From Escherichia coli (GTDB lineage: Bacteria; Pseudomonadota; Gammaproteobacteria; Enterobacterales; Enterobacteriaceae), in assembly GCF_003790525.1 (NCBI RefSeq), contig NZ_CP033635.1: a stretch of 64,000 nt of DNA. One strand, 5' to 3'. Numbering within the stretch: position 1 is the stretch's first letter; each line of letters starts with the position of its first letter. Under the pieces are notes generated by a model. That model had not been told where the DNA came from. It worked only from the letters and a program-made list of their open reading frames with translations, and made no database searches. The translations under genes and the position numbers were made by a program. Below, piece after piece: positions 2,578 through 56,242 of this stretch.

Positions 2578-4623
<2,046 letters not shown>

Positions 4624-4766: not shown

Positions 4767-14713
<9,947 letters not shown>

Positions 14714-20198: not shown

Positions 20199-20205
20199 CT
20201 ATGTC

Positions 20206-20252
20206 TGGTGGCCCCTGCTGGACTTGAACCAGCGACCAAGCGATTATGAGTC
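20206..20252 (-). tRNA. ileX: 3'-terminal 47 nt of a tRNA-Ile (ileX-type) gene; truncated tRNA remnant serving as island att core
   Basis: tggtggcccctgctggacttgaaccagcgaccaagcgattatgagtc is the reverse complement of a tRNA 3' half (T-arm, acceptor stem, CCA); similarity to tRNA stops abruptly at 20253. Confidence 0.7.
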
Positions 20253-20448
20253 ATGAGGCAAGTTCGTTCTATATTGTTTTTGTTTGTTCGTGATTGCTTT
20301 ATTAGTTGTTTGTAATCAATAAATTATGTGATTTTCCCTGTCTCCGCTTGGTTCCGTTTTTTCTTCATTGTACGATCGTTACCTGACCCATTACCTGACC
20401 CAAAATCACGAGTTATTCTGATTGTTACTGGTTTAGAAAAGAGGTTCT

Positions 20449-21765
20449 ATGGCCGTCAATCTTACTGAAACAGCCATCCGAGCATTGAAAGCAAAAAAGA
20501 CATCGTTCTATGTCTGGAGCAACAGCTCTCAACGTGGCACTGGACGACTTGGTGTCAAAGTTCAGCCTTCTGGCAGCAAGATTTTCTATTTCCGCTATTA
20601 CGTGGAAAAAGGGAAAAAAGAAAGATTCATTCAATTGGGTATATGGCCTGAGATGAAACTGGCCACAGCGAATGAACTGACAAAAAAGTATGGTGCCTGG
20701 CTCATTGAAGGAAAGGATCCCCAGGCAGAACTGGAACGACAACAGTTTGCAGAACAGCAGCGGATACAACTCCATCAATCACAGGGCTCATTTGAAGCAT
20801 TGATTCATGGTTATGTTAACAAAATGAAAATTGATAATAAGAGGACATGGCAGGATGTTCTGAAACGCCTTGAAAATGAATGCTATACAGTGATCCCCCG
20901 TGAAACTAAAGCTAAAGATGTGACTTCCGGACAGATTAAACATATCCTGGCCGGGATCATTCAGCGCGGTGCTGTGGTTCACTCTAACCGGATCCGTTCT
21001 TACCTGATGGCTGCATTTAACTATGGACTGAAAGCAGATAACGATCCGATGAACACAAGTGTAGGGATTACTTTTGGGCTGGAGGCAAATCCGGTGTCAG
21101 TGATACCGAAACAGTCATCTGCTGAAAAAGTCGGTGATACCTGGCTGACACTTGAAGAGTTGCGTTTTCTAATGGAACATTTTGCTGAAGCAACCAACGT
21201 TGGATTATTGATGCAACATTTGATCCGATTCTGTATCTATACCGGAGGGCAACGTCCTTTCGAAATGATCGCCAGTCAGTGGTGTGATGTTGATTTTCAA
21301 CAAAAAACGCTGCTGGTGACTGCTGATGTCTCTAAAAATAAACGAGAGCATTTGATACCGTTGACTGAATCAGCATTACAGGAATTATCCTGTGTGCAGG
21401 AGTTAACAAAAGAAAAATCCAGCCCTTACATTTTTCCACTTTCGACTAATGGTAAGCGTCCGGTTCGTACGGACAGTCTGGCTCGCGCTATCATGTATTT
21501 CCGGGCTTTTAATCCTGACTTTAAAATTTTTACAGCACGTGACTTACGTCGGACCTGTAAAACGTTAATGGGAGAAGCTGGGATCAGTAAGGAAATCCGC
21601 GATCGTATTCAAAATCATGCGTTGAACGATGTCAGTTCAAAACATTATGATCGATACGATTATTTGCCAGAAAAACGCAGAGCACTTGAGATCTGGGAGG
21701 ACCGGGTTAATAACTATCAACAGCAAACAGGCAATAATGTTGTCAATCTGTTTGGCAGAAGGTGA
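20449..21765 (+). CDS. P4-type tyrosine integrase
   Basis: 438-aa ORF; C-terminal catalytic region with R...HxxR...Y arrangement (ARDLRRTCKTLM, HALNDVSSKHYDRYDY); directly adjacent to the tRNA fragment. Confidence 0.9.
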   Translation: MAVNLTETAIRALKAKKTSFYVWSNSSQRGTGRLGVKVQPSGSKIFYFRYYVEKGKKERFIQLGIWPEMKLATANELTKKYGAWLIEGKDPQAELERQQFAEQQRIQLHQSQGSFEALIHGYVNKMKIDNKRTWQDVLKRLENECYTVIPRETKAKDVTSGQIKHILAGIIQRGAVVHSNRIRSYLMAAFNYGLKADNDPMNTSVGITFGLEANPVSVIPKQSSAEKVGDTWLTLEELRFLMEHFAEATNVGLLMQHLIRFCIYTGGQRPFEMIASQWCDVDFQQKTLLVTADVSKNKREHLIPLTESALQELSCVQELTKEKSSPYIFPLSTNGKRPVRTDSLARAIMYFRAFNPDFKIFTARDLRRTCKTLMGEAGISKEIRDRIQNHALNDVSSKHYDRYDYLPEKRRALEIWEDRVNNYQQQTGNNVVNLFGRR

Positions 21766-21894
21766 GGGAGTTCCTGGTTGCTGTACGAATTGTGTACAAT
21801 TGATGGGTATTGTTGATGCACTTGGTTCTTGTATTGTTTACTATAATTATTGAGGTAAATTTTCGTGCCGGTATTACTCAGAGGGGATTCAAAA

Positions 21895-22491
21895 ATGGCT
21901 GTAATTCCAATGTCTTACTCCCCTGCTACTGTAGCTCGTCGTTTTTCGATACTGGATGGAGTAACTATTCAGGGCGTGCTTTACCAGATCATCTGGGATC
22001 CAAAGACTCCGTTTGCTGCGGTAATCGAAGCTGCACCTTCTGTTATTGATGGTGATGTTCGCCATAAGGTTGTTGCCACTCTGGAGCTTCAGCGTCGTCC
22101 CCGGCTTGAAGGCGTGTTTGTCCAGAAATTCTGGGAAGAACAGGATGTTGCTCAGATTGAAGGGATTGTTGTCGATGGCGCTGTACGTGATGTTGGTCTT
22201 GCAACGTTTGTTTATGAAACGATAGTCACAAAAGCGGGCGTTGTACTATTAAGTGATAACGAGCAATATGAAGGAGGTAAAGCTCTCTGGCAGCATATTG
22301 CGCGTCGTTCAACGAATCTGAAGGTGTTTATTTTAGATACTGATTCCGCACGGTATTACCCGTTTGATGGCGAACGGATCAGTTATGACGGGAAAAGCAT
22401 CCCGGAATCAGAAATCTGGAGTGAACATCCTGAGCGAAACAGACACGCTGTCGTTCTTGTGGCTGAATCTGTTAATGGTAAAGCCGCATAA
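21895..22491 (+). CDS. Hypothetical protein (198 aa), integrase-proximal cargo
   Basis: Track ORF 21865..22491; ATG at 21895 preceded by AGAGGGGA RBS. Weak resemblance to GNAT motif A (VVDGAVRDVGLATFVYE) is not conclusive. Confidence 0.4.
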   Translation: MAVIPMSYSPATVARRFSILDGVTIQGVLYQIIWDPKTPFAAVIEAAPSVIDGDVRHKVVATLELQRRPRLEGVFVQKFWEEQDVAQIEGIVVDGAVRDVGLATFVYETIVTKAGVVLLSDNEQYEGGKALWQHIARRSTNLKVFILDTDSARYYPFDGERISYDGKSIPESEIWSEHPERNRHAVVLVAESVNGKAA

Positions 22492-22538
22492 TTTGCTGAG
22501 TGTCTCATTTTTTGAGATCTTGCTGGAAAGTCTCCTTT

Positions 22539-22561
22539 GGGGATAGCGAACTGCTATCCCC
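22539..22561. terminator. Bidirectional hairpin between convergent cargo genes
   Basis: ggggatagc-gaact-gctatcccc perfect 9-bp inverted repeat between stops at 22491 (+) and 22574 (-). Confidence 0.45.
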
Positions 22562-22573
22562 TTTCTCAGTGAG

Positions 22574-24178
22574 TTACTGTTCGACCAGACATTTTCCCCA
22601 TAAAGGTCGTATCGAGTATCTATCTTCGCTATATGGATTTATTTTATTTTTTTCCCTCTGTGCTATCAGCAACGTGTCGATCTCATCCTTAATAATGTGT
22701 TGAACTGCTTGACGGTAACGGTTAAGCGAAGTGTCACTGATATCTTGTGGAAGTTGTAGACTGCCATCTGCCTTGACAAGTTCATTTACACCATCTTTAA
22801 TTCTGCGTCCCTGACCATCAGGTATACCTTCATTCAGATCATAGCCTTTTAGTCCTGCAAGACGAATATTCACGTCAATCTTTTCTGTACGTATCTTTTT
22901 GTTACTTACCAACAGAATTTTATTGGCGTTATACCATTTTTCAAATATTTCCAGTTGTTTCATGATGTTTGTGAAGTTATTCAGTTCGCTCCTGAATTCA
23001 ATAGATTTTCTAATTTTACGCTCTTTTGCATCAATGTTTATTCCTGGATAATTTATTTCCATTTTTAACGGTTCTGTGTATGCCTGTTGCAGGCAATCAG
23101 CAAGATTCATTGCTGCATCCTGCAGGGTATTGGTATAAATCAGTTTCAGAAGTTCATCACGCTGTATAGTGATTTGACAATAGTCTTTTTCCCATGCGGT
23201 GGTGTTTTCAATCGTGTCACTTTCATCGGAAATAATTGTTGTGAACTTCCAGGTGTAACGAATAAAATCATTTCCTTTAAAATATTGCACTAATTTATTT
23301 AACCATTCATATATTTCCAGAGCATAAAGTTTAACGTATCCATCATATATTATCTTTGTTGCATTTTTGTTGGCTAGCGAAAACATTTTGTCCACGAATT
23401 CTGTACGCCCGATTGTTAGCAATTGTTTTCTAAGTTTACTCACATCGTTAGTATCTGGTTTCTCACAATTCCAGGGACTTTTGTATTCATTTTCAAAAGG
23501 AGAAAGCCATTCAGGAATCTCTGTTTCTGAGTGATAGCAGTTGTTAATAGCCAAACCAAGGGTTCTGGCAAGTATCGCTGATTCATCAATTTGATGGTAT
23601 CGGTTCAGTTGTTCCAGTAATTCTTTAGTACATGAGTGCGCAACAGAAAGATCCTGATGGCAATATCCTTGTCGAACCAGAGCGGGAAGTGGTGAGCAAT
23701 GAGCTTTACAATCTGTCAGAATATTGAACAAATCGTTTCTGACGAATTCTTCCATCTCAGGTGTTTTCCAGCCACCACTATTTTGGCCGACAAATTTTGC
23801 TGTTGGTTCCCTGTTCATATCTCCCCAGGTTTTCAGGCTGACGAGTCTGTTATCAAAACCATTGTATAAATGGCACATAACCTGAAAAGCAGCATACAGA
23901 TCTTTAGATAGTGGATTATCGGTCTCACTTATGGAGTAGTTCTCTCTGTTTTTCTCTAAAATACTTTGGAGTTTTGTGTTAGCGCGTAATGCCGAGAGAA
24001 TCCGATGTTGTTCATCAAACCAAGGACGATATTCTGGATCCAGATACAATCTGCGTGCTTTGAAAATGAGTAGAAGCAACTGTTCGGAAACAGCTTCATG
24101 TATGTGGGGAAACGGCATGGAGGTGCCGGATAAAACACGATAGTACGGGTGGTTTGTTTTTACCTTTTTAGTTACCAT
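22574..24178 (-). CDS. Hypothetical 534-aa protein, low GC; candidate phage-defence or abortive-infection protein
   Basis: Long uninterrupted ORF in an AT-rich block between integrase and alpA; no motif I can assign confidently. Confidence 0.5.
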   Translation of the reverse strand: MVTKKVKTNHPYYRVLSGTSMPFPHIHEAVSEQLLLLIFKARRLYLDPEYRPWFDEQHRILSALRANTKLQSILEKNRENYSISETDNPLSKDLYAAFQVMCHLYNGFDNRLVSLKTWGDMNREPTAKFVGQNSGGWKTPEMEEFVRNDLFNILTDCKAHCSPLPALVRQGYCHQDLSVAHSCTKELLEQLNRYHQIDESAILARTLGLAINNCYHSETEIPEWLSPFENEYKSPWNCEKPDTNDVSKLRKQLLTIGRTEFVDKMFSLANKNATKIIYDGYVKLYALEIYEWLNKLVQYFKGNDFIRYTWKFTTIISDESDTIENTTAWEKDYCQITIQRDELLKLIYTNTLQDAAMNLADCLQQAYTEPLKMEINYPGINIDAKERKIRKSIEFRSELNNFTNIMKQLEIFEKWYNANKILLVSNKKIRTEKIDVNIRLAGLKGYDLNEGIPDGQGRRIKDGVNELVKADGSLQLPQDISDTSLNRYRQAVQHIIKDEIDTLLIAQREKNKINPYSEDRYSIRPLWGKCLVEQ

Positions 24179-24957
24179 AATGTTAAATTCTTCCGTCTAT
24201 TGCATAGCTGTTTCCAGTAGAGAAACTTGATACAGTCCTTTGTCAGGACATTGATACAGAGTTAACAGCCTCTACGAAATGGGAATCAGTTATGCAGTGG
24301 CATTATACGATGCTGAATCTAATACGATATCCTTAGCGTTTATTCCTGATTTTTTTACGAGCATTCCCTTTTGTTGCATATTGCTCAGGACGCAAATGAT
24401 TTTACGGTTATAGCCCTCTACAGTCACGTCACTTTCATCTGAAAATATGTATCGTTTTCATTCAATTATTATCTTTTGTCTGCACTTTAGCTTTAGAAAG
24501 TTGGCAAAAATCAACTCCCTCTTACAAGTTCTATTATCGCCAGAAGATAATTTTGTGAACTTCGTCACGTTTTCAAACTAATGTTGTGGGGGCTTTTCTG
24601 GGGAGAATTTTTGGTCACTACCCCTCCTCTTGATATCATAGATTATAACAAGATTTTTTTTGTTTTTGTCTGCATAAAATAACCTACGAATATTGTGATT
24701 TTGATTTTTATTTTGTATACCAAAAAGCATTGTTTAAGTTATTTTTATATTGTGACTTTCTTTGTTGTTATTGTGTTATTAGAAGTCAGTTAATTAAATC
24801 ATTTCTCACAATTTGATTTCTTGGTTGTGCAAATGTATTGTTTTGCTCGTGAGTTGCTGGTGCTGTTCAACAGCATACCACTACAGATAGATGTAGTGAT
24901 TTGAGCAGCTCACATGCATATACAATCTGAAAATCATGAATATATAAGGAGAGCAAT

Positions 24958-25185
24958 ATGTGGAAGCCGTTAAGAGATGAGAACCGTTTATCAATTTTGA
25001 AGATCTATGGATACACCTGTGACAGACTGGTACGAGAAAAGGAACGCCAGAAAATTACGTCTATTTCTCGTTCACAAGCCTGGAAACTGGAACGTGAAGG
25101 AAAATTCCCGCCACGTAAAACTATTGGAAAGAAATCCTGTGGGTGGTTATTAAGTGATCTATTGTGGTGGATTAGTCAGTATTAA
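24958..25185 (+). CDS. alpA: AlpA-family phage regulatory protein / excisionase-like HTH
   Basis: 75-aa ORF; ISRSQAWKLEREGKFPPRKTIGKKSCGWLLSDLLWWI fits the AlpA/Xis-type HTH pattern; preceded by a ~780-bp AT-rich non-coding region. Confidence 0.65.
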   Translation: MWKPLRDENRLSILKIYGYTCDRLVREKERQKITSISRSQAWKLEREGKFPPRKTIGKKSCGWLLSDLLWWISQY

Positions 25186-25247
25186 CCTTATAGTATCAGA
25201 ATAATATATATTTCTATATTTTAATTTTATAATTAAAAAGGAGTTTC

Positions 25248-25994
25248 ATGATGAAACGTGTCTCTTTCTCTCTTGCAGAAACATATGAAGCTGATGTAAT
25301 TAAAAAGTATCAGCATTTAAAAAAATGCTCATTTTCAGCAGCGATTAAAGAGTGTTTAAAGCTAGGGGCTCCTGTTTTAAACAGGATAAATGAAAATATT
25401 GCTGCTATAACTGATATAGAGGATAAGCTACGTCAGTTTTTTAATGAGGAACCATTTGTGCAACGGACAAAGCCTGAAATAACAAAAGGAGAGTTTTTTC
25501 ATAGCATTTATAAATCGCATATCAAATATGAATATGATGTTCTCGATAGAAAGATATTTCCTCATGAAAGCACCAGAAATGCTATGGGAGTTGCAGAGAA
25601 AAAGGGAATTAAAGAGAATGCGACCTTAATGCTGGAATATTATAAAGTTGAGAAGGCAATTTGTATTTACACGAACAGAAAAGTTTCCCATACCCTGAAT
25701 CGTGCAGGAGGGTTTTATAAAACCATTCTGATTAAAACCAGTGTTTTTGGGGATTATTTTTTTGACTTTTGCAATTCAGTTTGCCTGCCGATAGATGAGT
25801 TGATTGAGTATGGTACGAAAGAAACAGTGAGGCGACATCAGATTCGTAGTACAGGATTTTGTACTTTTCATATTCCGATTTTTTATATCAATAATAAGGC
25901 TGTAATAGTGCCTGTTCTGAGAACAGAGGAAGTTTCACAAAGTTCCAGAACAGGTGGAGATGTTATTATTATTAACCCATTTGAAGATGAATGA
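25248..25994 (+). CDS. Hypothetical protein with N-terminal ribbon-helix-helix-like segment
   Basis: 248-aa ORF; N-terminus MKRVSFSLAETYEADVIKKYQHL resembles a CopG/RHH beta-alpha-alpha pattern; remainder unassigned. Confidence 0.4.
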   Translation: MMKRVSFSLAETYEADVIKKYQHLKKCSFSAAIKECLKLGAPVLNRINENIAAITDIEDKLRQFFNEEPFVQRTKPEITKGEFFHSIYKSHIKYEYDVLDRKIFPHESTRNAMGVAEKKGIKENATLMLEYYKVEKAICIYTNRKVSHTLNRAGGFYKTILIKTSVFGDYFFDFCNSVCLPIDELIEYGTKETVRRHQIRSTGFCTFHIPIFYINNKAVIVPVLRTEEVSQSSRTGGDVIIINPFEDE

Positions 25995-26215
25995 TTATGG
26001 CCCGCGTAGATTTATTCATAACCCAGAAATCGTGGTGTAAATGATGAACAGAAACCGCTTTCTGAGGTTAAAGAGAGCAATCATTACCCGGGAGTGGCCA
26101 ACTCTTTTATCGAGTACTTTTCCGATGTATCTGGAGAGCCTCCCTTAGAAAAGAGTAATGCGACTCAGGAAAAAACAGGTTCAATAATTAATTCATGACA
26201 CCAGTTTGAGGCATT

Positions 26216-26776
26216 ATGGCGAGTTTTGCATACATAGACTCTGAAAAATGGTCAAAACTTAATCGCTTAAAATCCATGATTCAGAGATATTTTAAAGAAC
26301 CACTATTGCAGTTAACAGGCGAATTGGGTCGCCCGGATTATACTCTGGCAGACAGAAAACGGTTAGTTCGACTCCTGACGCAGGATATGCAAAGGGGTGA
26401 TATTCTGATTACTAAATCGTTAACTTGTTTTGGTAATACGCCGGAAAAAATACAGGAGGTTTTATCTTTAAGTATCAGACAAGGTATTAATATTTGCTTT
26501 TTTACGTCATCAGAGTTGCCGGATGGTGATGATATTCCTGTGGTACTCACCGGGATGATTTTACCTACAGATATTAGAGGAAAAATTCCCGACATCAGTA
26601 TCCGGAAAATTAAAAGAAAACCAGGAAGGAAAGAAGGGAGTATTCATAGTAAAAATATCAGACAGTTGAAATTGCAGGGGTTCAGTCAGTCACAAACAGC
26701 CAGAAAATTAAGCATCAGTTTATCCACTGTAAAAAGACACTGGGATAAAGGTATTGTTGATCTAACTGCAGAGTAA
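26216..26776 (+). CDS. Serine-recombinase (resolvase/invertase)-derived protein with C-terminal HTH; catalytic motifs degenerate (YagL-like)
   Basis: 186-aa ORF; RGDILITKSLTCFGNT aligns with resolvase GDTLVVxKLDRLGRS but lacks the RVS serine motif and DRLGR arginine; C-terminal QSQTARKLSISLSTVKRHW HTH. Confidence 0.5.
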   Translation: MASFAYIDSEKWSKLNRLKSMIQRYFKEPLLQLTGELGRPDYTLADRKRLVRLLTQDMQRGDILITKSLTCFGNTPEKIQEVLSLSIRQGINICFFTSSELPDGDDIPVVLTGMILPTDIRGKIPDISIRKIKRKPGRKEGSIHSKNIRQLKLQGFSQSQTARKLSISLSTVKRHWDKGIVDLTAE

Positions 26777-26970
26777 CATTTTATAGTCCTTGTAGCTATT
26801 GGCAATGGAGTTATAAATACATGTGCGTTGGATAGGTAATATATATTATATCTGTGATGTATAGTATATGTGTAATGATGGATATGATGTACTAATAGAG
26901 CTAATGGTATTCTGATACCAAATAATTAGTTGTGTGTAGATCATAACTCTGTTTAATGTTTTAGAACGTT

Positions 26971-27011
26971 CTAATGTAACTGTGTAACATCATCCTGTTC
27001 TCTAATGTAAC
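26971..27011. repeat. Direct repeats ctaatgtaac (x2, 31 bp apart) upstream of the Gp2-like gene
   Basis: ctaatgtaac at 26971-26980 and 27002-27011, with a related tgtgtaac between them. Confidence 0.35.
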
Positions 27012-27157
27012 AATAGGCAGTAGCGTTTTTCTTAATTGACGCCCAGAGGGTTATATATCCCTCTGGGAACTACTGATACGAATATTAATATCTGCTTCTG
27101 TTGTGTATTGGGTAGGTTAACTATTAGCTTATCTCTGAAAGCAAAAGGAATATTAAC

Positions 27158-27772
27158 ATGATTACGATTGAAACTCTTTACGGTGAATGTCATGAGGCTC
27201 ACGGGTTAAAAATAAGAAACCAGGTGAATAACCTCTTCCAGAAACATCCCAGAATAACGGCAATACGGGTGGATCTCCATTATCCTCCCGTGATTGACAA
27301 CGGGGATACCATTACCTGTTTTCCTAACCTGAGTCCCGGAGAGATATCTCGTTTCCGTAACTCGCTGAATGCGAAAATTAATGCAGATCAACACCGTAAA
27401 AAACAACAAGGCAAACGCACCTACGCAACGTCGGTTTGTATTATCTGGGCGAAAGAATATACGCAGTCCTTTAAATGTCATTATCACGTCTGCCTTTTTT
27501 TTAACAAAGACGCCTATTACCACCTGGGAGACTATGAGCGCTCTGACACCCTGAGAGGGTTAATTACCGGAGCCTGGTACAGTGCCTTAGGGTTAGAACT
27601 GGAAGATCACCAGGGACTAGTTCATTTCCCTGCTAATGGACGTTACATCCTGGATATTAACGATCCTGATTTCCCTGAGCAATATCAGCGCTTATTGGCA
27701 CGTCTGGATTATCTGACGAAGCTCGACACTAAAGCATCAGGCCAGCGTAACTTTGGCTACAGCGGTTTTTGA
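27158..27772 (+). CDS. Inovirus Gp2-like / YagK-YfjJ family protein with HUH motif
   Basis: 204-aa ORF; HYHVCLFF (HUH-like) and conserved HPRITAIRVDLHYP block typical of the YagK/YfjJ prophage family. Confidence 0.5.
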   Translation: MITIETLYGECHEAHGLKIRNQVNNLFQKHPRITAIRVDLHYPPVIDNGDTITCFPNLSPGEISRFRNSLNAKINADQHRKKQQGKRTYATSVCIIWAKEYTQSFKCHYHVCLFFNKDAYYHLGDYERSDTLRGLITGAWYSALGLELEDHQGLVHFPANGRYILDINDPDFPEQYQRLLARLDYLTKLDTKASGQRNFGYSGF

Positions 27773-27799
27773 CCTATTGTAACTGTAAGGTGATTTATT

Positions 27800-28366
27800 A
27801 TGTATACAGAATCAAACGTTAAGCTTTCCTGTAACGCCCTCTGGCAAAAGTATGTCCTTGCAACTCTGTATCGGGCTGCAGCTACACATCCTAAAATTAA
27901 ATTATTACAATTTAAATTAATACCTTGCCCAGGTATGAACAAGGCAATTCCCTCTCTGATGGCTGATTTTACTGGTGAACTGCATAGACTAATTTCTGAA
28001 TATTTGCAGTGCAAGCGACGTAAAGATAAATCTGTTGAGCCCGCCCCTTTATATTATCTCTGGAGTAGGGAAGCTGTGGCTAACGATACCACTCCTTATC
28101 TTATGGTACTGCTACTTAATAACGATGTCTGGTGTAAGAGTCGTGAGGTGGTGGCTCTCAGAAATCTGATTGAGCAGGCGTGGGGAAAAGTATTGGACGA
28201 AGATAACTCCATTACACATCAGGTTGTGTATCCTGAAGTGCTGTCGTTGGTATTTGATGCAGCTAACACATACAACGCTGAGCCTGGTGTACTGGAACAG
28301 ACGGCCCAGGCTTACATTGAATCGCATGGTGCCATTGAACGTCATCTTGGGTGTAGTGACTTTTAA
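27800..28366 (+). CDS. Paralogue of the upstream Gp2-like protein (HUH motif degenerate)
   Basis: 188-aa ORF; N-terminus HPKIKLLQFKLIPCP parallels HPRITAIRVDLHYPP of the neighbour; the HYHV position reads PYLMV. Confidence 0.4.
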   Translation: MYTESNVKLSCNALWQKYVLATLYRAAATHPKIKLLQFKLIPCPGMNKAIPSLMADFTGELHRLISEYLQCKRRKDKSVEPAPLYYLWSREAVANDTTPYLMVLLLNNDVWCKSREVVALRNLIEQAWGKVLDEDNSITHQVVYPEVLSLVFDAANTYNAEPGVLEQTAQAYIESHGAIERHLGCSDF

Positions 28367-40716: not shown

Positions 40717-41511
40717 TGAGCCGCCCCGGGAATCCTGGAGACTAAACTCCCTGAGAAAGAGGTAAACAGAATGACTAAAAATACTCGTTTTTCCCCCGAA
40801 GTCCGTCAGAGGGCGATTCGTATGGTTCTGGAAAGTCAGGGCGAATATGACTCACAGTGGGCGGCAATTTGTTCCATTGCCCCAAAGATTGGCTGTACAC
40901 CGGAGACTCTGCGTGTCTGGGTGCGCCAGCATGAGCGGGATACCGGAGGCGGTGATGGCGGGCTCACCACCGCTGAACGTCAGCGTCTGAAAGAGCTGGA
41001 ACGTGAAAATCGTGAACTGCGCCGCAGTAACGATATCCTTCGCCAGGCTTCCGCTTATTTTGCGAAGGTGGAGTTCGACCGCCTCTGGAAAAAGTGATGC
41101 CACTGCTGGATAAGCTGCGTAAGCTGTACGGGGTCGGACCGGTATGCAGTGAACTACATATTGCCCCGTCAACGTATTACCACTGTCAGCAACAGCGACA
41201 TCATCCTGATAAACGCAGTGCCCGTGCGCAGCGCGATGACTGGCTGAAGAAAGAGATACTGCGCGTATACGATGGGAATCATCAGGTATACGGTGTGCGT
41301 AAAGTCTGGCGTCAGTTGTTACGGGAAGGAATCAGGGTAGCCAGATGTACAGTGGCGCGCCTCATGGCGGTTATGGGACTTGCCGGTGTTCTCCGGGGTA
41401 AAAAGGTCCGCACTACCGTCAGCCGGAAAGCCGTTGCCGCAGGCGACCGCGTAAACCGTCAGTTTGTGGCAGAACGTCCTGACCAGTTGTGGGTGGCTGA
41501 TTTTACTTACG
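40717..41511 (+). mobile_element. IS3-family element (IS629/IS1203-like) 5' part: left IR, orfA and orfB N-terminal section, ending at the group II intron
   Basis: Left end tgagccgccccgggaatcctggagac; orfA 40771..41097 ([26 protein letters not shown]...), orfB from 41094 reading ...QLWVADFTY up to 41511. Confidence 0.65.
40771..41097 (+). CDS. IS3-family transposase OrfA (HTH/leucine-zipper subunit)
   Basis: 108-aa ORF; conserved IS3-family orfA; 4-bp overlap with the orfB start. Confidence 0.75.
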
Positions 41512-44269
<2,758 letters not shown>

Positions 44270-49425: not shown

Positions 49426-52400
49426 ATGGTCAGTCAAACCAATGAACAAGCATTAGAGTCGGCCATTGAGAAATGTCTGGCTGGGATCAGTACTGAAGAG
49501 CTTAAAGAGGGACTGAGTCAGCAGTCACTGGGTGCTGGATACTTCATTGGTGCTGCTAGTGACTTTAATATGCAATATGCCATTGATGAACGTTTTTTCT
49601 GGCAATTTCTGCAAAAGACACAAGAAGTAGAGTTGGCCAAACTGCAAAAGAACAACCCCTCAGATTGGCAACGTAAGTTACTCGAACGATTTGACCGACT
49701 GATTAAGAAGCATGGCATTCTTCATTTACTTAAGAAAGGGCTAAGCGTAGACGATGCTCATTTCAATTTGCTCTATCCAGCCCCTTTGGCAAGTAGTAGT
49801 GAGAAGGTAAAGCAAAACTTTGCAGATAACGTGTTTAGTTGTACTCGCCAAGTGCGCTATTCCATGGTAAATCCCCTACAAGAAATCGACATGGTATTGT
49901 TTATCAACGGAATACCCTTGATAACGCTGGAGTTGAAGAACGCATGGACCGGGCAAACAGCACGTTATCACGGCCAAAAGCAGTATCGAGATGATCGGGA
50001 TGCAACTCAGCCATTGCTGACCTTTGGCCGCTGCCTAGTGCATATGGCGGTCGATACCGACGAAGTGTATATGACCACCAAGTTATCAGGTAGCAGTACA
50101 TTCTTCTTGCCGTTCAATAAAGGTCACAATCTTGGACAAGGCAACCCGCCGAATCCATCTGGCCATAAAACGGCATACCTATGGCAAGAAGTATTCACTA
50201 AAGACAGCTTGGCGAATATTATTCAGCATTTTGTGCGTCTGGATGGGTCAAGCAAAGATCCATTACCAAAGCGAACCCTGTTCTTTCCTCGATACCATCA
50301 ATTGGATGTGGTGAGAAAATTAGTAGACCATGCCGCCCAGCACGGTGTCGGTCAGACTTACTTAATTCAACACTCAGCCGGTTCAGGTAAGTCTAACTCG
50401 ATTACCTGGGCAGCTTATCAGCTAATTGAAACCTATCCTGCTTCGTCTGATGTGGCAGGCGGAAAAAGCTTGGAGCAGCCGTTGTTTGACTCTGTGATTG
50501 TGGTCACCGATAGACGCCTATTGGACAAGCAGCTGCGGGATAACATTAAAGAGTTTTCTGAAGTAAAGAACATTATTGCCCCAGCGAATAAGTCTTCTGA
50601 GCTTAAGCAGGCGCTGGAGAATGGCAAAAAGATTATTATAACGACGATTCAGAAATTCCCGTTCATTATTGATGGTATCGCCGATCTTAGTGACAAGCGC
50701 TTTGCAGTGATCATCGATGAAGCACACAGCTCACAGTCTGGTTCGGCGCATGACAATATGAACCGAGCGATGGGCAAGTCTGAAGTCGAAGAGGCAGAAG
50801 ATGCTCAGGATAAAATCCTTCAGGCGATGAGATCGCGTAAGATGCGCGGGAATGCGTCGTACCTGGCATTTACAGCGACACCAAAAAACAGCACTTTGGA
50901 GAAATTTGGTCAACGCCAAGAAGATGGCTCTTACAAGCCGTTTCACTTGTATTCGATGAAACAAGCCATTGAAGAAGGCTTCATCTTGGATGTGCTGGCA
51001 AATTATACGACGTACAAAAGTTATTATGAGATTGAGAAATCAATTGCTGATAACCCTGAGTTTGATACCAAAAAGGCGCAGAAAAAACTCAGAGCTTATG
51101 TAGAACGAAGCCAGCAAACAATTGATATCAAGGCAGAGATTATGCTGGAGCATTTTGTTCCGCATGTCGTGAATACGAAAAAGCTCAAAGGTAAAGGTAA
51201 AGGAATGGTGGTCACTCAAAATATTGAGGCGGCCATTCGATACTACAAAGCGATAAGGCGAATACTTGAGGAGCAAGGAAACCCGTTTAAAGTTGCCATT
51301 GCTTTCTCAGGAACCAAAGAAGTTGATGGTATTGAATATACCGAAGCAGATATTAATGGTTTTGCCGAGTCAGATACCAAAGATATGTTTGATACCGATG
51401 AGTATCGACTTTTAGTGGTTGCTAACAAGTATCTGACTGGGTTTGACCAGCCTAAGCTTTGCGCCATGTATGTAGATAAGAAGCTCGCCAGTGTCTTGTG
51501 TGTTCAGGCGCTATCTAGGCTCAATCGCAGTGCACCTAAGCTAGGGAAGAAAACAGAAGACTTGTTTATCCTGGATTTTTTCAACTCGGTTGAAGATATT
51601 CAATCAGCATTCGATCCTTTCTATACAGCAACGTCATTGTCCCAAGCTACAGATATAAACGTACTGCACGAGTTGAAAGATGAAATGGACGATGTCGGTG
51701 TGTACGAGTGGTATGAAGTTGAAGACTTTGTGACGCGTTATTTCAAGAATGAAGACGCCCAAACACTCAGTCCAATCATTGATATTGCCGCAGCGCGGTT
51801 TGACCATGAACTAGATCTTGAAGCTGAAGCTAAAGTGGACTTTAAGATTAAAGCCAAACAGTTCGTTAAAATCTATGGGCAGATGGCTTCTATCATGCCT
51901 TATGAAATGGTCAGCTGGGAAAAACTGTTTTGGTTCCTGAAGTTTTTAATACCGAAATTGAAAGTGGAAGATCCCGATGCTGATGCTATTGATGAGCTTC
52001 TCGATTCTGTCGATCTGAGTTCATACGGTTTGCAACGTGTGAAGCTTAACCACAGCATTAAACTTAGTGACCAAGAAGCGGAGCTTGATCCTCAAAATCC
52101 GAACCCACGTGGGGTGCATGGCGGTGAAAAAGAAACTGACCCGCTGGATGAAATCATTCGCACATTTAATGAGCGATGGTTCCAGGGCTGGAGTGCCACA
52201 CCTGAAGAGCAAAAGGTTAAGTTCGTGAACATCGCTGAAAGTATCCGCAATCACCCTGACTTCGAATCGAAATACAAAAACAACCCAGATCCCCATAATC
52301 GAGATTTGGCCTTCGAAAAAATGCTCAAGGAAATCATGCTGCAACGCCGTAAAGATGAACTTGAGCTCTACAAGTTGTTCGCAGGAGATTCAGCATTTAA

Positions 52401-55870: not shown

Positions 55871-56242
55871 ACAGTCTGCCAGGGGAAATGCCTGATTACA
55901 TTGCGTTAACCAACTGAAAACATGACACAAACACCTCATCCCCCTCCTGTTTCTCTTGCGTGACTGCCTTGCTGTTAATAGAACAAAACGATCAATAAGA
56001 CAGGTGTCGATCGTTGCCATCGATCGTTTGTAGTGGTTAATGGTCTGCGAAAAGGCAGCTGAATCTCTTCATCATGCATAACGGAATTGCACACAACGGA
56101 CTGATACTTCTCTGGCGGATGAGAGAGGGAAAGCATTTATGTCCGGGAAAAACCACTTTATCTGACCATGCTGTTTTGTACCTGCCGGTATCCACTTTTG
56201 TGGGTACCGGCTTTTTTATTCACCCTCTGTAAGGAAAAGCTG

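Follow-up and report, generated by a model that had tools for sequence, protein, structure and literature searches.

The 779-bp spacer that separates a gene for a 534-aa protein from an alpA-like gene in the Escherichia coli DNA studied here is most probably an ordinary divergent regulatory region, and a CRP-like site near its center is the one testable lead. The window, as the term is used below, is the whole 64,000-nt stretch of DNA that was analyzed. Judging from the comparison of homologous spacers, we favor with moderate confidence the view that the spacer, genuinely free of coding sequence, controls transcription in both directions and belongs to a CP4-57-like island (int - cargo - alpA - YagK/YfjJ) that lies beside nfeF. 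The unusual property of the spacer is its length. The equivalent yfjH-alpA spacer of CP4-57 in E. coli K-12 measures 43 bp, and the spacer of the sister island of NCTC9064, which occupies the same nfeF site with other cargo, measures 92 bp and is without homology. A spacer of 690-779 bp was found in every island carrying a homologue of the 534-aa gene, and the long spacer was seen only together with that gene.

Horizontally acquired DNA has other AT-rich control regions like this one, which is mostly as expected for an alpA-type island. Its palindrome of 16 bp offers a concrete and cheap test of cAMP-CRP input into the activation of CP4-57/PICI-like islands. The long spacer is also tied to a small uncharacterised gene family that is found in a P2-prophage hot spot as well, and knowing how the 534-aa gene is switched on would help in testing it as a defence gene.

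Position, composition and distribution of the spacer

The initial annotation described an AT-rich, ORF-free gap with poly-T runs upstream of alpA, and this description was borne out. The spacer has a GC content of 33.9% (A 27.5%, T 38.6%), contains no ORF of more than 50 aa, and includes runs of seven and eight T at 24350 and 24654, respectively. It is bounded by the start of the 534-aa ORF at 24178 on the minus strand and by the start of alpA at 24958 on the plus strand; the two flanking genes diverge, and the RefSeq annotation agrees with these orientations. The AT content is 66% over the whole spacer, as against 49.7% in the window and 47.5% in the chromosomal flank, which is the kind of enrichment looked for in H-NS-silenced DNA, and it peaks at 75-80% per 100 nt within 24620-24800. 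The AT-richness is genuine relative to the host and modest relative to the island: the GC content is 39.5% in the island (20449-28366), 50.3% in the whole window and 52.5% in the left chromosomal flank, and other parts of the island are comparably AT-rich, namely the 248-aa gene (34.5% GC) and two other island spacers (16% and 32.5% GC). The longest start-to-stop ORF in the spacer has 50 aa. Since 38% of composition-preserving shuffles were likewise without an ORF longer than 50 aa, the absence of ORFs is at chance level. The features discussed in this paper are collected in Table 1.

Table 1. Positions in the window of the spacer, its predicted elements and its two neighboring genes
Feature	Position	Strand	Remarks
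534-aa gene, left neighbor	22574..24178	-	no family match
Whole non-coding spacer, 779 bp	24179..24957	.	between 534-aa gene (-) and alpA (+)
Segment adjoining the 534-aa gene start, ~100 nt	24179..24280	-	33-43% invariant columns vs 23% overall
Candidate -10 TATCGT for the 534-aa gene	24324..24329	-	~150 nt upstream of ATG
Pyrimidine tract CTCCCTCTTAC	24515..24525	+	left of palindrome
CRP-type palindrome TGTGA-ACTTCG-TCACG	24554..24569	.	half-sites invariant in 14 spacers
AT core, 75-80% AT, T-rich on plus strand	24620..24800	.	directly upstream of predicted alpA -35; defined by composition
Direct-repeat partner CCCCTCCTCTTG	24621-24632		right of palindrome
Alternative candidate -10 TATAAT	24642..24647	-	positional counterpart in 6/7 scanned spacers
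Predicted alpA promoter TTGATT-17-TATTGT	24813..24841	+	-35 24813-24818, -10 24836-24841
Nested inverted repeats in predicted alpA leader	24849..24913	+	predicted RNA three-way junction
alpA Shine-Dalgarno AGGAG	24947..24951	+	6 nt before ATG at 24958; invariant in 14 spacers
alpA-like gene, 75 aa	24958..25185	+	PF05930 Phage_AlpA, E = 2.5e-14; phrog_2790, excisionase and transcriptional regulator

The spacer is carried by 259 of 5426 complete E. coli genomes (at least 97% identity), as a rule in one copy per genome, and no feature is annotated within it in any of these 259 carriers. A mobile repeat or MITE was ruled out, there being one spacer site per genome, no phage match to the spacer and a single plasmid match that was mis-assigned. 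The plasmid record in question (CP101363.1, Salmonella enterica; L002) is a linear contig of 11.7 kb in which the spacer and the alpA start are 99.9% identical to those of the window. Because the contig also carries aer, nfeR and nfeF along with the island, it probably derives from the chromosome and was deposited as a plasmid by mistake, or else the assembly contains E. coli DNA. Repeats inside the spacer were limited to short two-copy matches, none of them significant, and a 24-nt match of the spacer to the interior of the 534-aa gene was at chance level (12-nt seed, 14 kb).

Conservation among diverged lineages

An alignment was made of 14 homologous spacers from three diverged lineages. 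The spacers of the other lineages, which are 690-735 bp each, are about 54-62% identical to the spacer of the window, a level near saturation, whereas the flanking genes are 69-77% identical in DNA. Invariant columns make up 23% of the alignment of the 14 spacers, and there are only two invariant runs of at least 5 bases, i.e., TTTTGTGA (24551-24558) and the AGGAG of alpA. The alignment demonstrates that the length of the spacer (690-779 bp) and its layout were kept across three lineages whose sequences otherwise appear nearly randomised.

Conservation is not evenly distributed. The segment adjoining the start of the 534-aa gene has a higher proportion of invariant columns than the alignment as a whole (Table 1) and is probably the 5' leader of this gene; its consensus RNA structure is weak (-4.9 kcal/mol). 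The AT core is the fastest-evolving part of the spacer and has the lowest conservation across lineages. Copies with 97-99% identity vary at 28 positions, of which about half are located within 24680-24830. Such variation would fit a tract in which composition alone matters.

The central palindrome

The central palindrome, which the initial annotation does not mention, is the most conserved element of the spacer. The run TTTTGTGA is the only invariant run of 8 bases in the 14 spacers and includes the left arm of this palindrome. The cAMP-CRP dimer has the consensus TGTGA-N6-TCACA. The palindrome matches this consensus at 9 of 10 positions in the window and at all 10 in strain D10 and in all other lineages; in the latter it reads TTTGTGA-N6-TCACAAA. 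The difference between the window and D10 is a G/A polymorphism at 24569 (TCACG in the window, TCACA in D10). The half-sites are fixed while the N6 between them occurs in seven variants among the 14 spacers, which is the pattern of conservation that a CRP site should have, and six of the seven variants start with T, as in the CRP consensus TGTGAT. Fixed half-sites around a free spacer are the signature that would be expected of a dimeric helix-turn-helix protein, and the palindrome would most simply be a putative site for the host cAMP-CRP dimer. The pattern TGTGA-N6-TCAC has a single match in each related locus and two in the 64-kb window, where 0.42 would be expected. The second exact match in the window, TGTGATTGTGGTCAC, lies at 50493-50507.

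The palindrome resembles the cAMP-CRP sites of E. coli in its half-sites, its 6-bp spacing, the T after TGTGA and its A/T-rich flanks, but differs from them in position, as no conserved promoter lies at a class I or class II distance from it and the two best promoter candidates are roughly 245 and 286 bp away. The distance from its center to the predicted alpA start is 265.5-286.5 bp in every lineage, and that to the ATG of the 534-aa gene varies by lineage from 303 to 375 bp. From no promoter conserved in all lineages is the palindrome at a canonical CRP activation distance (-41.5, -61.5 etc.). The candidate promoter nearest to the palindrome overlaps it, so that a protein bound there would be expected to repress. 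On reading of the sequences, the geometry of a class II CRP promoter was seen in L003 only (with TATTAA as the -10), the spacing not being kept in the window and in group C, and such an arrangement was set aside. A site of the P2 Ogr / P4 Delta type (TGT-N12-ACA) was ruled out, likewise on reading of the sequence, the spacing in the palindrome being N10. When the sequences are anchored on the palindrome, each of the three lineages shows pyrimidine tracts on both sides of it that form direct repeats. Read on the minus strand, these tracts (Table 1) are GGAGG-like, but no start codon follows them.

The position of the palindrome, off the standard CRP distance from a promoter, could possibly be explained if it were instead the operator of a regulator encoded by the island, either AlpA or the 198-208-aa protein, with the spacer acting as a self-contained switch. 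In agreement with this, the palindrome occurs only in islands sharing AlpA, the 198-208-aa protein and the 534-aa protein, in which AlpA is 78-85% identical with a nearly invariant HTH half, and the sister island, whose AlpA is more distant and whose cargo differs, lacks it; positive autoregulation by AlpA is, moreover, known in PICIs. On the other hand, the half-sites and the 6-bp spacing are those of a textbook CRP site, no winged-helix protein of the AlpA/Xis type is known to recognize a palindrome of this kind, and no DNA-binding domain was identified in the 208-aa protein. An AlpA operator of this form would be without precedent, because the one AlpA site that has been defined structurally, GGGACG, is 6 bp long, is bound by a monomer and belongs to an unrelated larger protein of Pseudomonas (PMC9371919). 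We consider regulation by an island-encoded protein at this palindrome unlikely.

A further-reaching proposal can be built on the putative cAMP-CRP site. In this proposal cAMP-CRP, or an island protein of like specificity, would act at the palindrome, midway between the promoters, to co-ordinate the 534-aa cargo and alpA activation with host physiology through two promoters about 530 bp apart, and it might counter-silence an H-NS filament on the tract of 72-80% AT. Such co-ordination seems rather unlikely. If it were true, the carbon status of the host would feed into how a satellite-like island moves, together with the cargo presumed to serve in defence. No paper was found in the literature that links AlpA-type islands to CRP.

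Promoters and the alpA leader

The initial annotation suggested that the divergent promoters of the 534-aa gene and of alpA might lie in this region. A position-weight scan of both strands in seven aligned spacers from three diverged lineages upheld this in silico for alpA, with a site conserved in position in all seven, and gave three weak, mutually exclusive candidates for the 534-aa gene. The predicted alpA promoter was the best-scoring of the promoter-like sites that recur at one alignment column in all seven spacers (scores 7.1-12.8). Its equivalents in the other spacers read TTGACT/TTGACC-17-TACCTT/TACATT, and the pattern was matched in 14 of 14 spacers. In the window, only 8 of 12 consensus positions are matched and transcription is predicted to start near 24848; the predicted leader measures 110-117 nt. 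As a prediction, the alpA promoter is well supported in silico. A simple consensus scan of the spacer found 3 promoter-like sites, fewer than in the shuffles (5.2).

The candidates for the 534-aa gene differ in location. The TACGATA containing the -10 nearest to the gene is common to all three lineages, 145-164 nt from the ATG, and a promoter cluster is present in the other lineages at alignment column 213; this candidate appears weak because its -35 is poor in the window. A further candidate has its -35 inside the palindrome. The alternative TATAAT beyond the palindrome belongs to a site that reads CAGACA-19-TATAAT in the window, TTGGGA-18-TAAAAT in L011 and L015, and TATGTT or TATGCT at the -10 in group B; no counterpart was listed for L016. 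With a start at this site, the transcript would cross the palindrome and have a leader of ~455 nt.

The predicted alpA leader contains nested inverted repeats (Table 1), and the fold of 24830-24929 was more stable than that of shuffled sequences on both strands (plus strand, z = -4.8; minus strand, z = -3.9). The leader itself, taken as 115 nt, folds at -33.8 kcal/mol (z = -3.1). The z values of its equivalents in other lineages were -2.5, -1.5, -0.4, +0.3 and +1.4, and because of this range the modeled fold is treated as lineage-specific, its meaning being uncertain. No homology was found between the alpA leader and the sister island of NCTC9064.

H-NS and IHF

Silencing by H-NS had been put forward as typical of such regions. 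For this spacer it is a plausible prediction, suggested by its composition (66-80% AT) and by the precedent of the alpA region of CP4So (PMC5148205). In CP4So, a P4-like cryptic prophage of Shewanella oneidensis, H-NS binds and represses the alpA promoter; measurements showed derepression by 19-fold as well as excision, and the alpA region was noted to contain two GATAATG motifs (PMC5148205). No copy of the H-NS high-affinity motif TCGATAAATT with up to 2 mismatches was found within 24179-24957, so that the spacer is without a nucleation motif of this kind, and the total number of such motifs in the window equals the chance expectation. The IHF consensus was likewise not found inside the spacer.

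Proposed operation of the control region

If the spacer is a bidirectional control region, as we favor, its parts could be arranged in the following manner. The left half, of 300-375 bp, would be that of the 534-aa gene, with the leader and one or more weak promoters. The invariant TGTGA-N6-TCACA palindrome, as a putative cAMP-CRP dimer site, would come next. It would be followed by a tract of ~230-250 bp, with 65-77% AT depending on the lineage (72.5% in the window), which may be the likeliest H-NS binding platform because only its composition is kept. The predicted sigma-70 promoter of alpA, the leader of ~110 nt and a strong Shine-Dalgarno sequence would then complete the region.

In related elements AlpA activates excision and serves as the master regulator (PMC5148205, PMC11773190). 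The AT tract would keep alpA nearly silent while the island is at rest, and hence also the activation or excision of the island. A dimeric regulator bound at the palindrome could modulate one or both of the divergent units from about 245-290 bp away. Alternatively, it could act directly on the promoter that overlaps the palindrome.

Decayed genes and small RNAs

The length of the spacer could also have arisen from the decay of a divergent gene followed by drift, in which case the spacer would be mostly functionless filler and only short promoter-proximal pieces would matter. Outside the E. coli type of island, the homologues of the 534-aa gene have an upstream region of 330-350 bp followed by a divergent partner gene, of 104-150 aa, which encodes either an acidic protein of 145-150 aa or a Gly/Ala-rich protein of 104-107 aa accompanied by one of 88 aa, and 350 bp and 450 bp together come close to the spacer length found here. 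The fast evolution of the AT core points in the same direction, as does an acidic ORF of 70-132 aa that survives upstream of the gene in L003 and L014 and is frameshifted in L009. However, a relic of the 145-150-aa gene or of the 104-107-aa and 88-aa genes was sought by tblastn in six E. coli-type spacers with negative results, and all partner proteins taken together gave nothing below an E value of about 0.4 against these six spacers. Because the partners leave no tblastn trace in the E. coli spacers, the idea of a decayed partner gene appears unsupported at the protein level, though the arithmetic of 350 + 450 bp is suggestive. In addition, many indels separate the lineages and yet the length of the spacer and the distance from the palindrome to alpA stay constant to about 20 bp, a constancy not predicted by neutral decay, and the invariant palindrome would stand in the middle of the supposed relic. 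We regard a spacer of mere filler as quite improbable.

An unannotated small RNA, which had been offered as another possible content of the region, found no support. There was no match in the spacer when Rfam was searched at the gathering score over the whole window, and a search of 24000-25250 at E values up to 10 gave only noise (eukaryotic snoRNA, miRNA and lncRNA models). No intrinsic terminator was found in the spacer on either strand, and a search for tRNA and tmRNA genes was negative. For the two gene-proximal segments, the RNAalifold consensus structures reached only -3.3 and -4.9 kcal/mol, and the z values of the folds were inconsistent between lineages. That the spacer is an sRNA gene or a type I toxin-antitoxin pair (a small hydrophobic peptide and an antisense RNA) is most improbable: the region is indeed long, AT-rich and T-rich, with several hydrophobic ORFs of 25-50 aa, a minus-strand TATAAT and a segment that outfolds shuffles on both strands (24830-24929), but its small ORFs are neither conserved between lineages nor preceded by a ribosome-binding site (no small ORF or type I toxin conserved with the window lineage emerged from a six-frame cross-comparison), hydrophobic peptides are the default translation of T-rich DNA, and the segment that folds well is part of the predicted alpA leader and has no equally stable counterpart in most other lineages.

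Comparison with related elements

In gene arrangement the island resembles the cryptic prophage CP4-57 of K-12 (intA - yfjH - alpA - yfjI - yfjJ): order and orientations of the genes agree, a divergent cargo gene precedes alpA, and genes of the YfjI/YfjJ type lie downstream; YfjI/DUF3987 is present in the sister lineages L003, L009, L014 and others. Unlike the island of the window, CP4-57 is inserted at ssrA and not beside nfeF, and the two spacers have no sequence similarity. The spacer resembles the alpA promoter region of CP4So in that each precedes the gene of an excision activator of the AlpA family, in an island that carries an integrase, and in that H-NS silencing is the proposed resting state. 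It differs in having no high-affinity motif, in being far longer and in being shared with a divergent cargo gene, and H-NS action is only predicted here.

In the phage-inducible chromosomal islands (PICIs) of Gram-negative bacteria, such as EcCIMP1, alpA likewise lies just downstream of int as the master regulator (PMC11773190). The alpA promoter region of the EcCIMP1 type was studied from -449 to +50 and is inducible and positively autoregulated (PMC11773190). Unlike the PICIs, the island of the window has no recognisable morphogenesis, packaging or primase genes, and it has a divergent cargo gene between int and alpA. The AlpA antiterminator of Pseudomonas aeruginosa (PMC9371919) has its name in common with the present protein, and also an HTH for the recognition of promoter DNA. 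It recognizes its GGGACG monomer site between the -35 and the -10 and needs a downstream terminator (PMC9371919), whereas neither a GGGACG-type site nor a terminator is evident in the spacer and the 75-aa protein lacks the N-terminal ring-forming part.

The left-operon control region of the satellite phage P4 can also be set beside the spacer. This control region (PLE/PLL) extends over several hundred bp and has more than one promoter upstream of an AlpA/Vis-type gene and then a primase gene, Vis being an AlpA-family protein. Unlike in P4, no CI RNA or C4-type RNA was detected by Rfam, and the genes sid, psu and delta are absent.

The island and the flanking genes

The island is inserted directly after nfeF (yqjH) and begins with int (20449-21765, plus strand), followed by a gene for a 208-aa protein on the plus strand and then by the 534-aa gene. 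Downstream of alpA are genes of 248 aa and 186 aa (HTH), two YagK/YfjJ genes and then IS elements. The domain content is that of an int/AlpA/YagK-YfjJ island, with PF00589 and PF13356 in int, PF05930 in AlpA and YagK_YfjJ_C found twice. YfjI, present in the sister lineages, is missing from the island of the window. In 25248-26776, the YfjI/DUF3987 primase-like gene of K-12 CP4-57 and of all sister lineages is replaced by the 248-aa gene, which has no family match, and by the 186-aa gene, which has a C-terminal HTH of the resolvase type.

The 534-aa protein has no match in Pfam, NCBIfam, PHROG or PADLOC. Its AlphaFold model is fairly confident and mostly helical (pLDDT 78.9, pTM 0.80), and no Foldseek match to it was found in the PDB at E values up to 0.001. 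The family is small, with 20 clusters at 90% identity, all annotated as hypothetical, and the organisms named by the sources are Enterobacterales only. In E. coli islands of the same design the homologues are 57-60% identical. In Klebsiella the homologue lies between genes S and V of P2-like prophages, and in Serratia and others it lies in other islands; loci with homologues elsewhere include L005/L006 (6001-7623), L007, L013, L022 and L023. The palindrome was not found in the contexts of Klebsiella, Serratia and other hosts. The 534-aa gene together with its small divergent partner is a candidate two-gene cargo module, possibly one of defence.

In lineage B, an acidic ORF of 70-132 aa (MTTTASTDRNIQ(Q)EEEEEGDL...) is located at 5546-5945 on the plus strand in L003 and at 3827-4039 on the minus strand in L014. 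It lies 55 nt upstream of the 540-aa gene in the same orientation, is frameshifted in L009 and was not seen in the window lineage. A small gene that is decaying, or one confined to a lineage, could account for it.

Right after the terminator hairpin of nfeF and before int, a fragment of 47 nt (20205-20251, minus strand) reads as the 3' part of a tRNA, from the anticodon loop CTCATAA to ...GGGGCCACCA. We take the fragment to be of the tRNA-Ile2/ileX type. Since ARAGORN found no intact tRNA in the window or in five related loci, the fragment looks like the island's copy of the att core, the complete gene being either missing or located elsewhere. At 20314-20326, AATCAATAAATTA fits the IHF consensus, and TCAATAAATT differs from the high-affinity motif of H-NS by 1 mismatch. 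With the tRNA fragment on one side and int on the other, these sites are where the arm of an attachment site would be expected.

Mobile elements are abundant in the window to the right of the island. The Rfam matches outside the spacer (41052-41168, 43695-43781 and 55988-56224) were to the ALIL pseudoknot, which is a frameshift signal of the IS3 family, a group II intron domain and the IS102 RNA.
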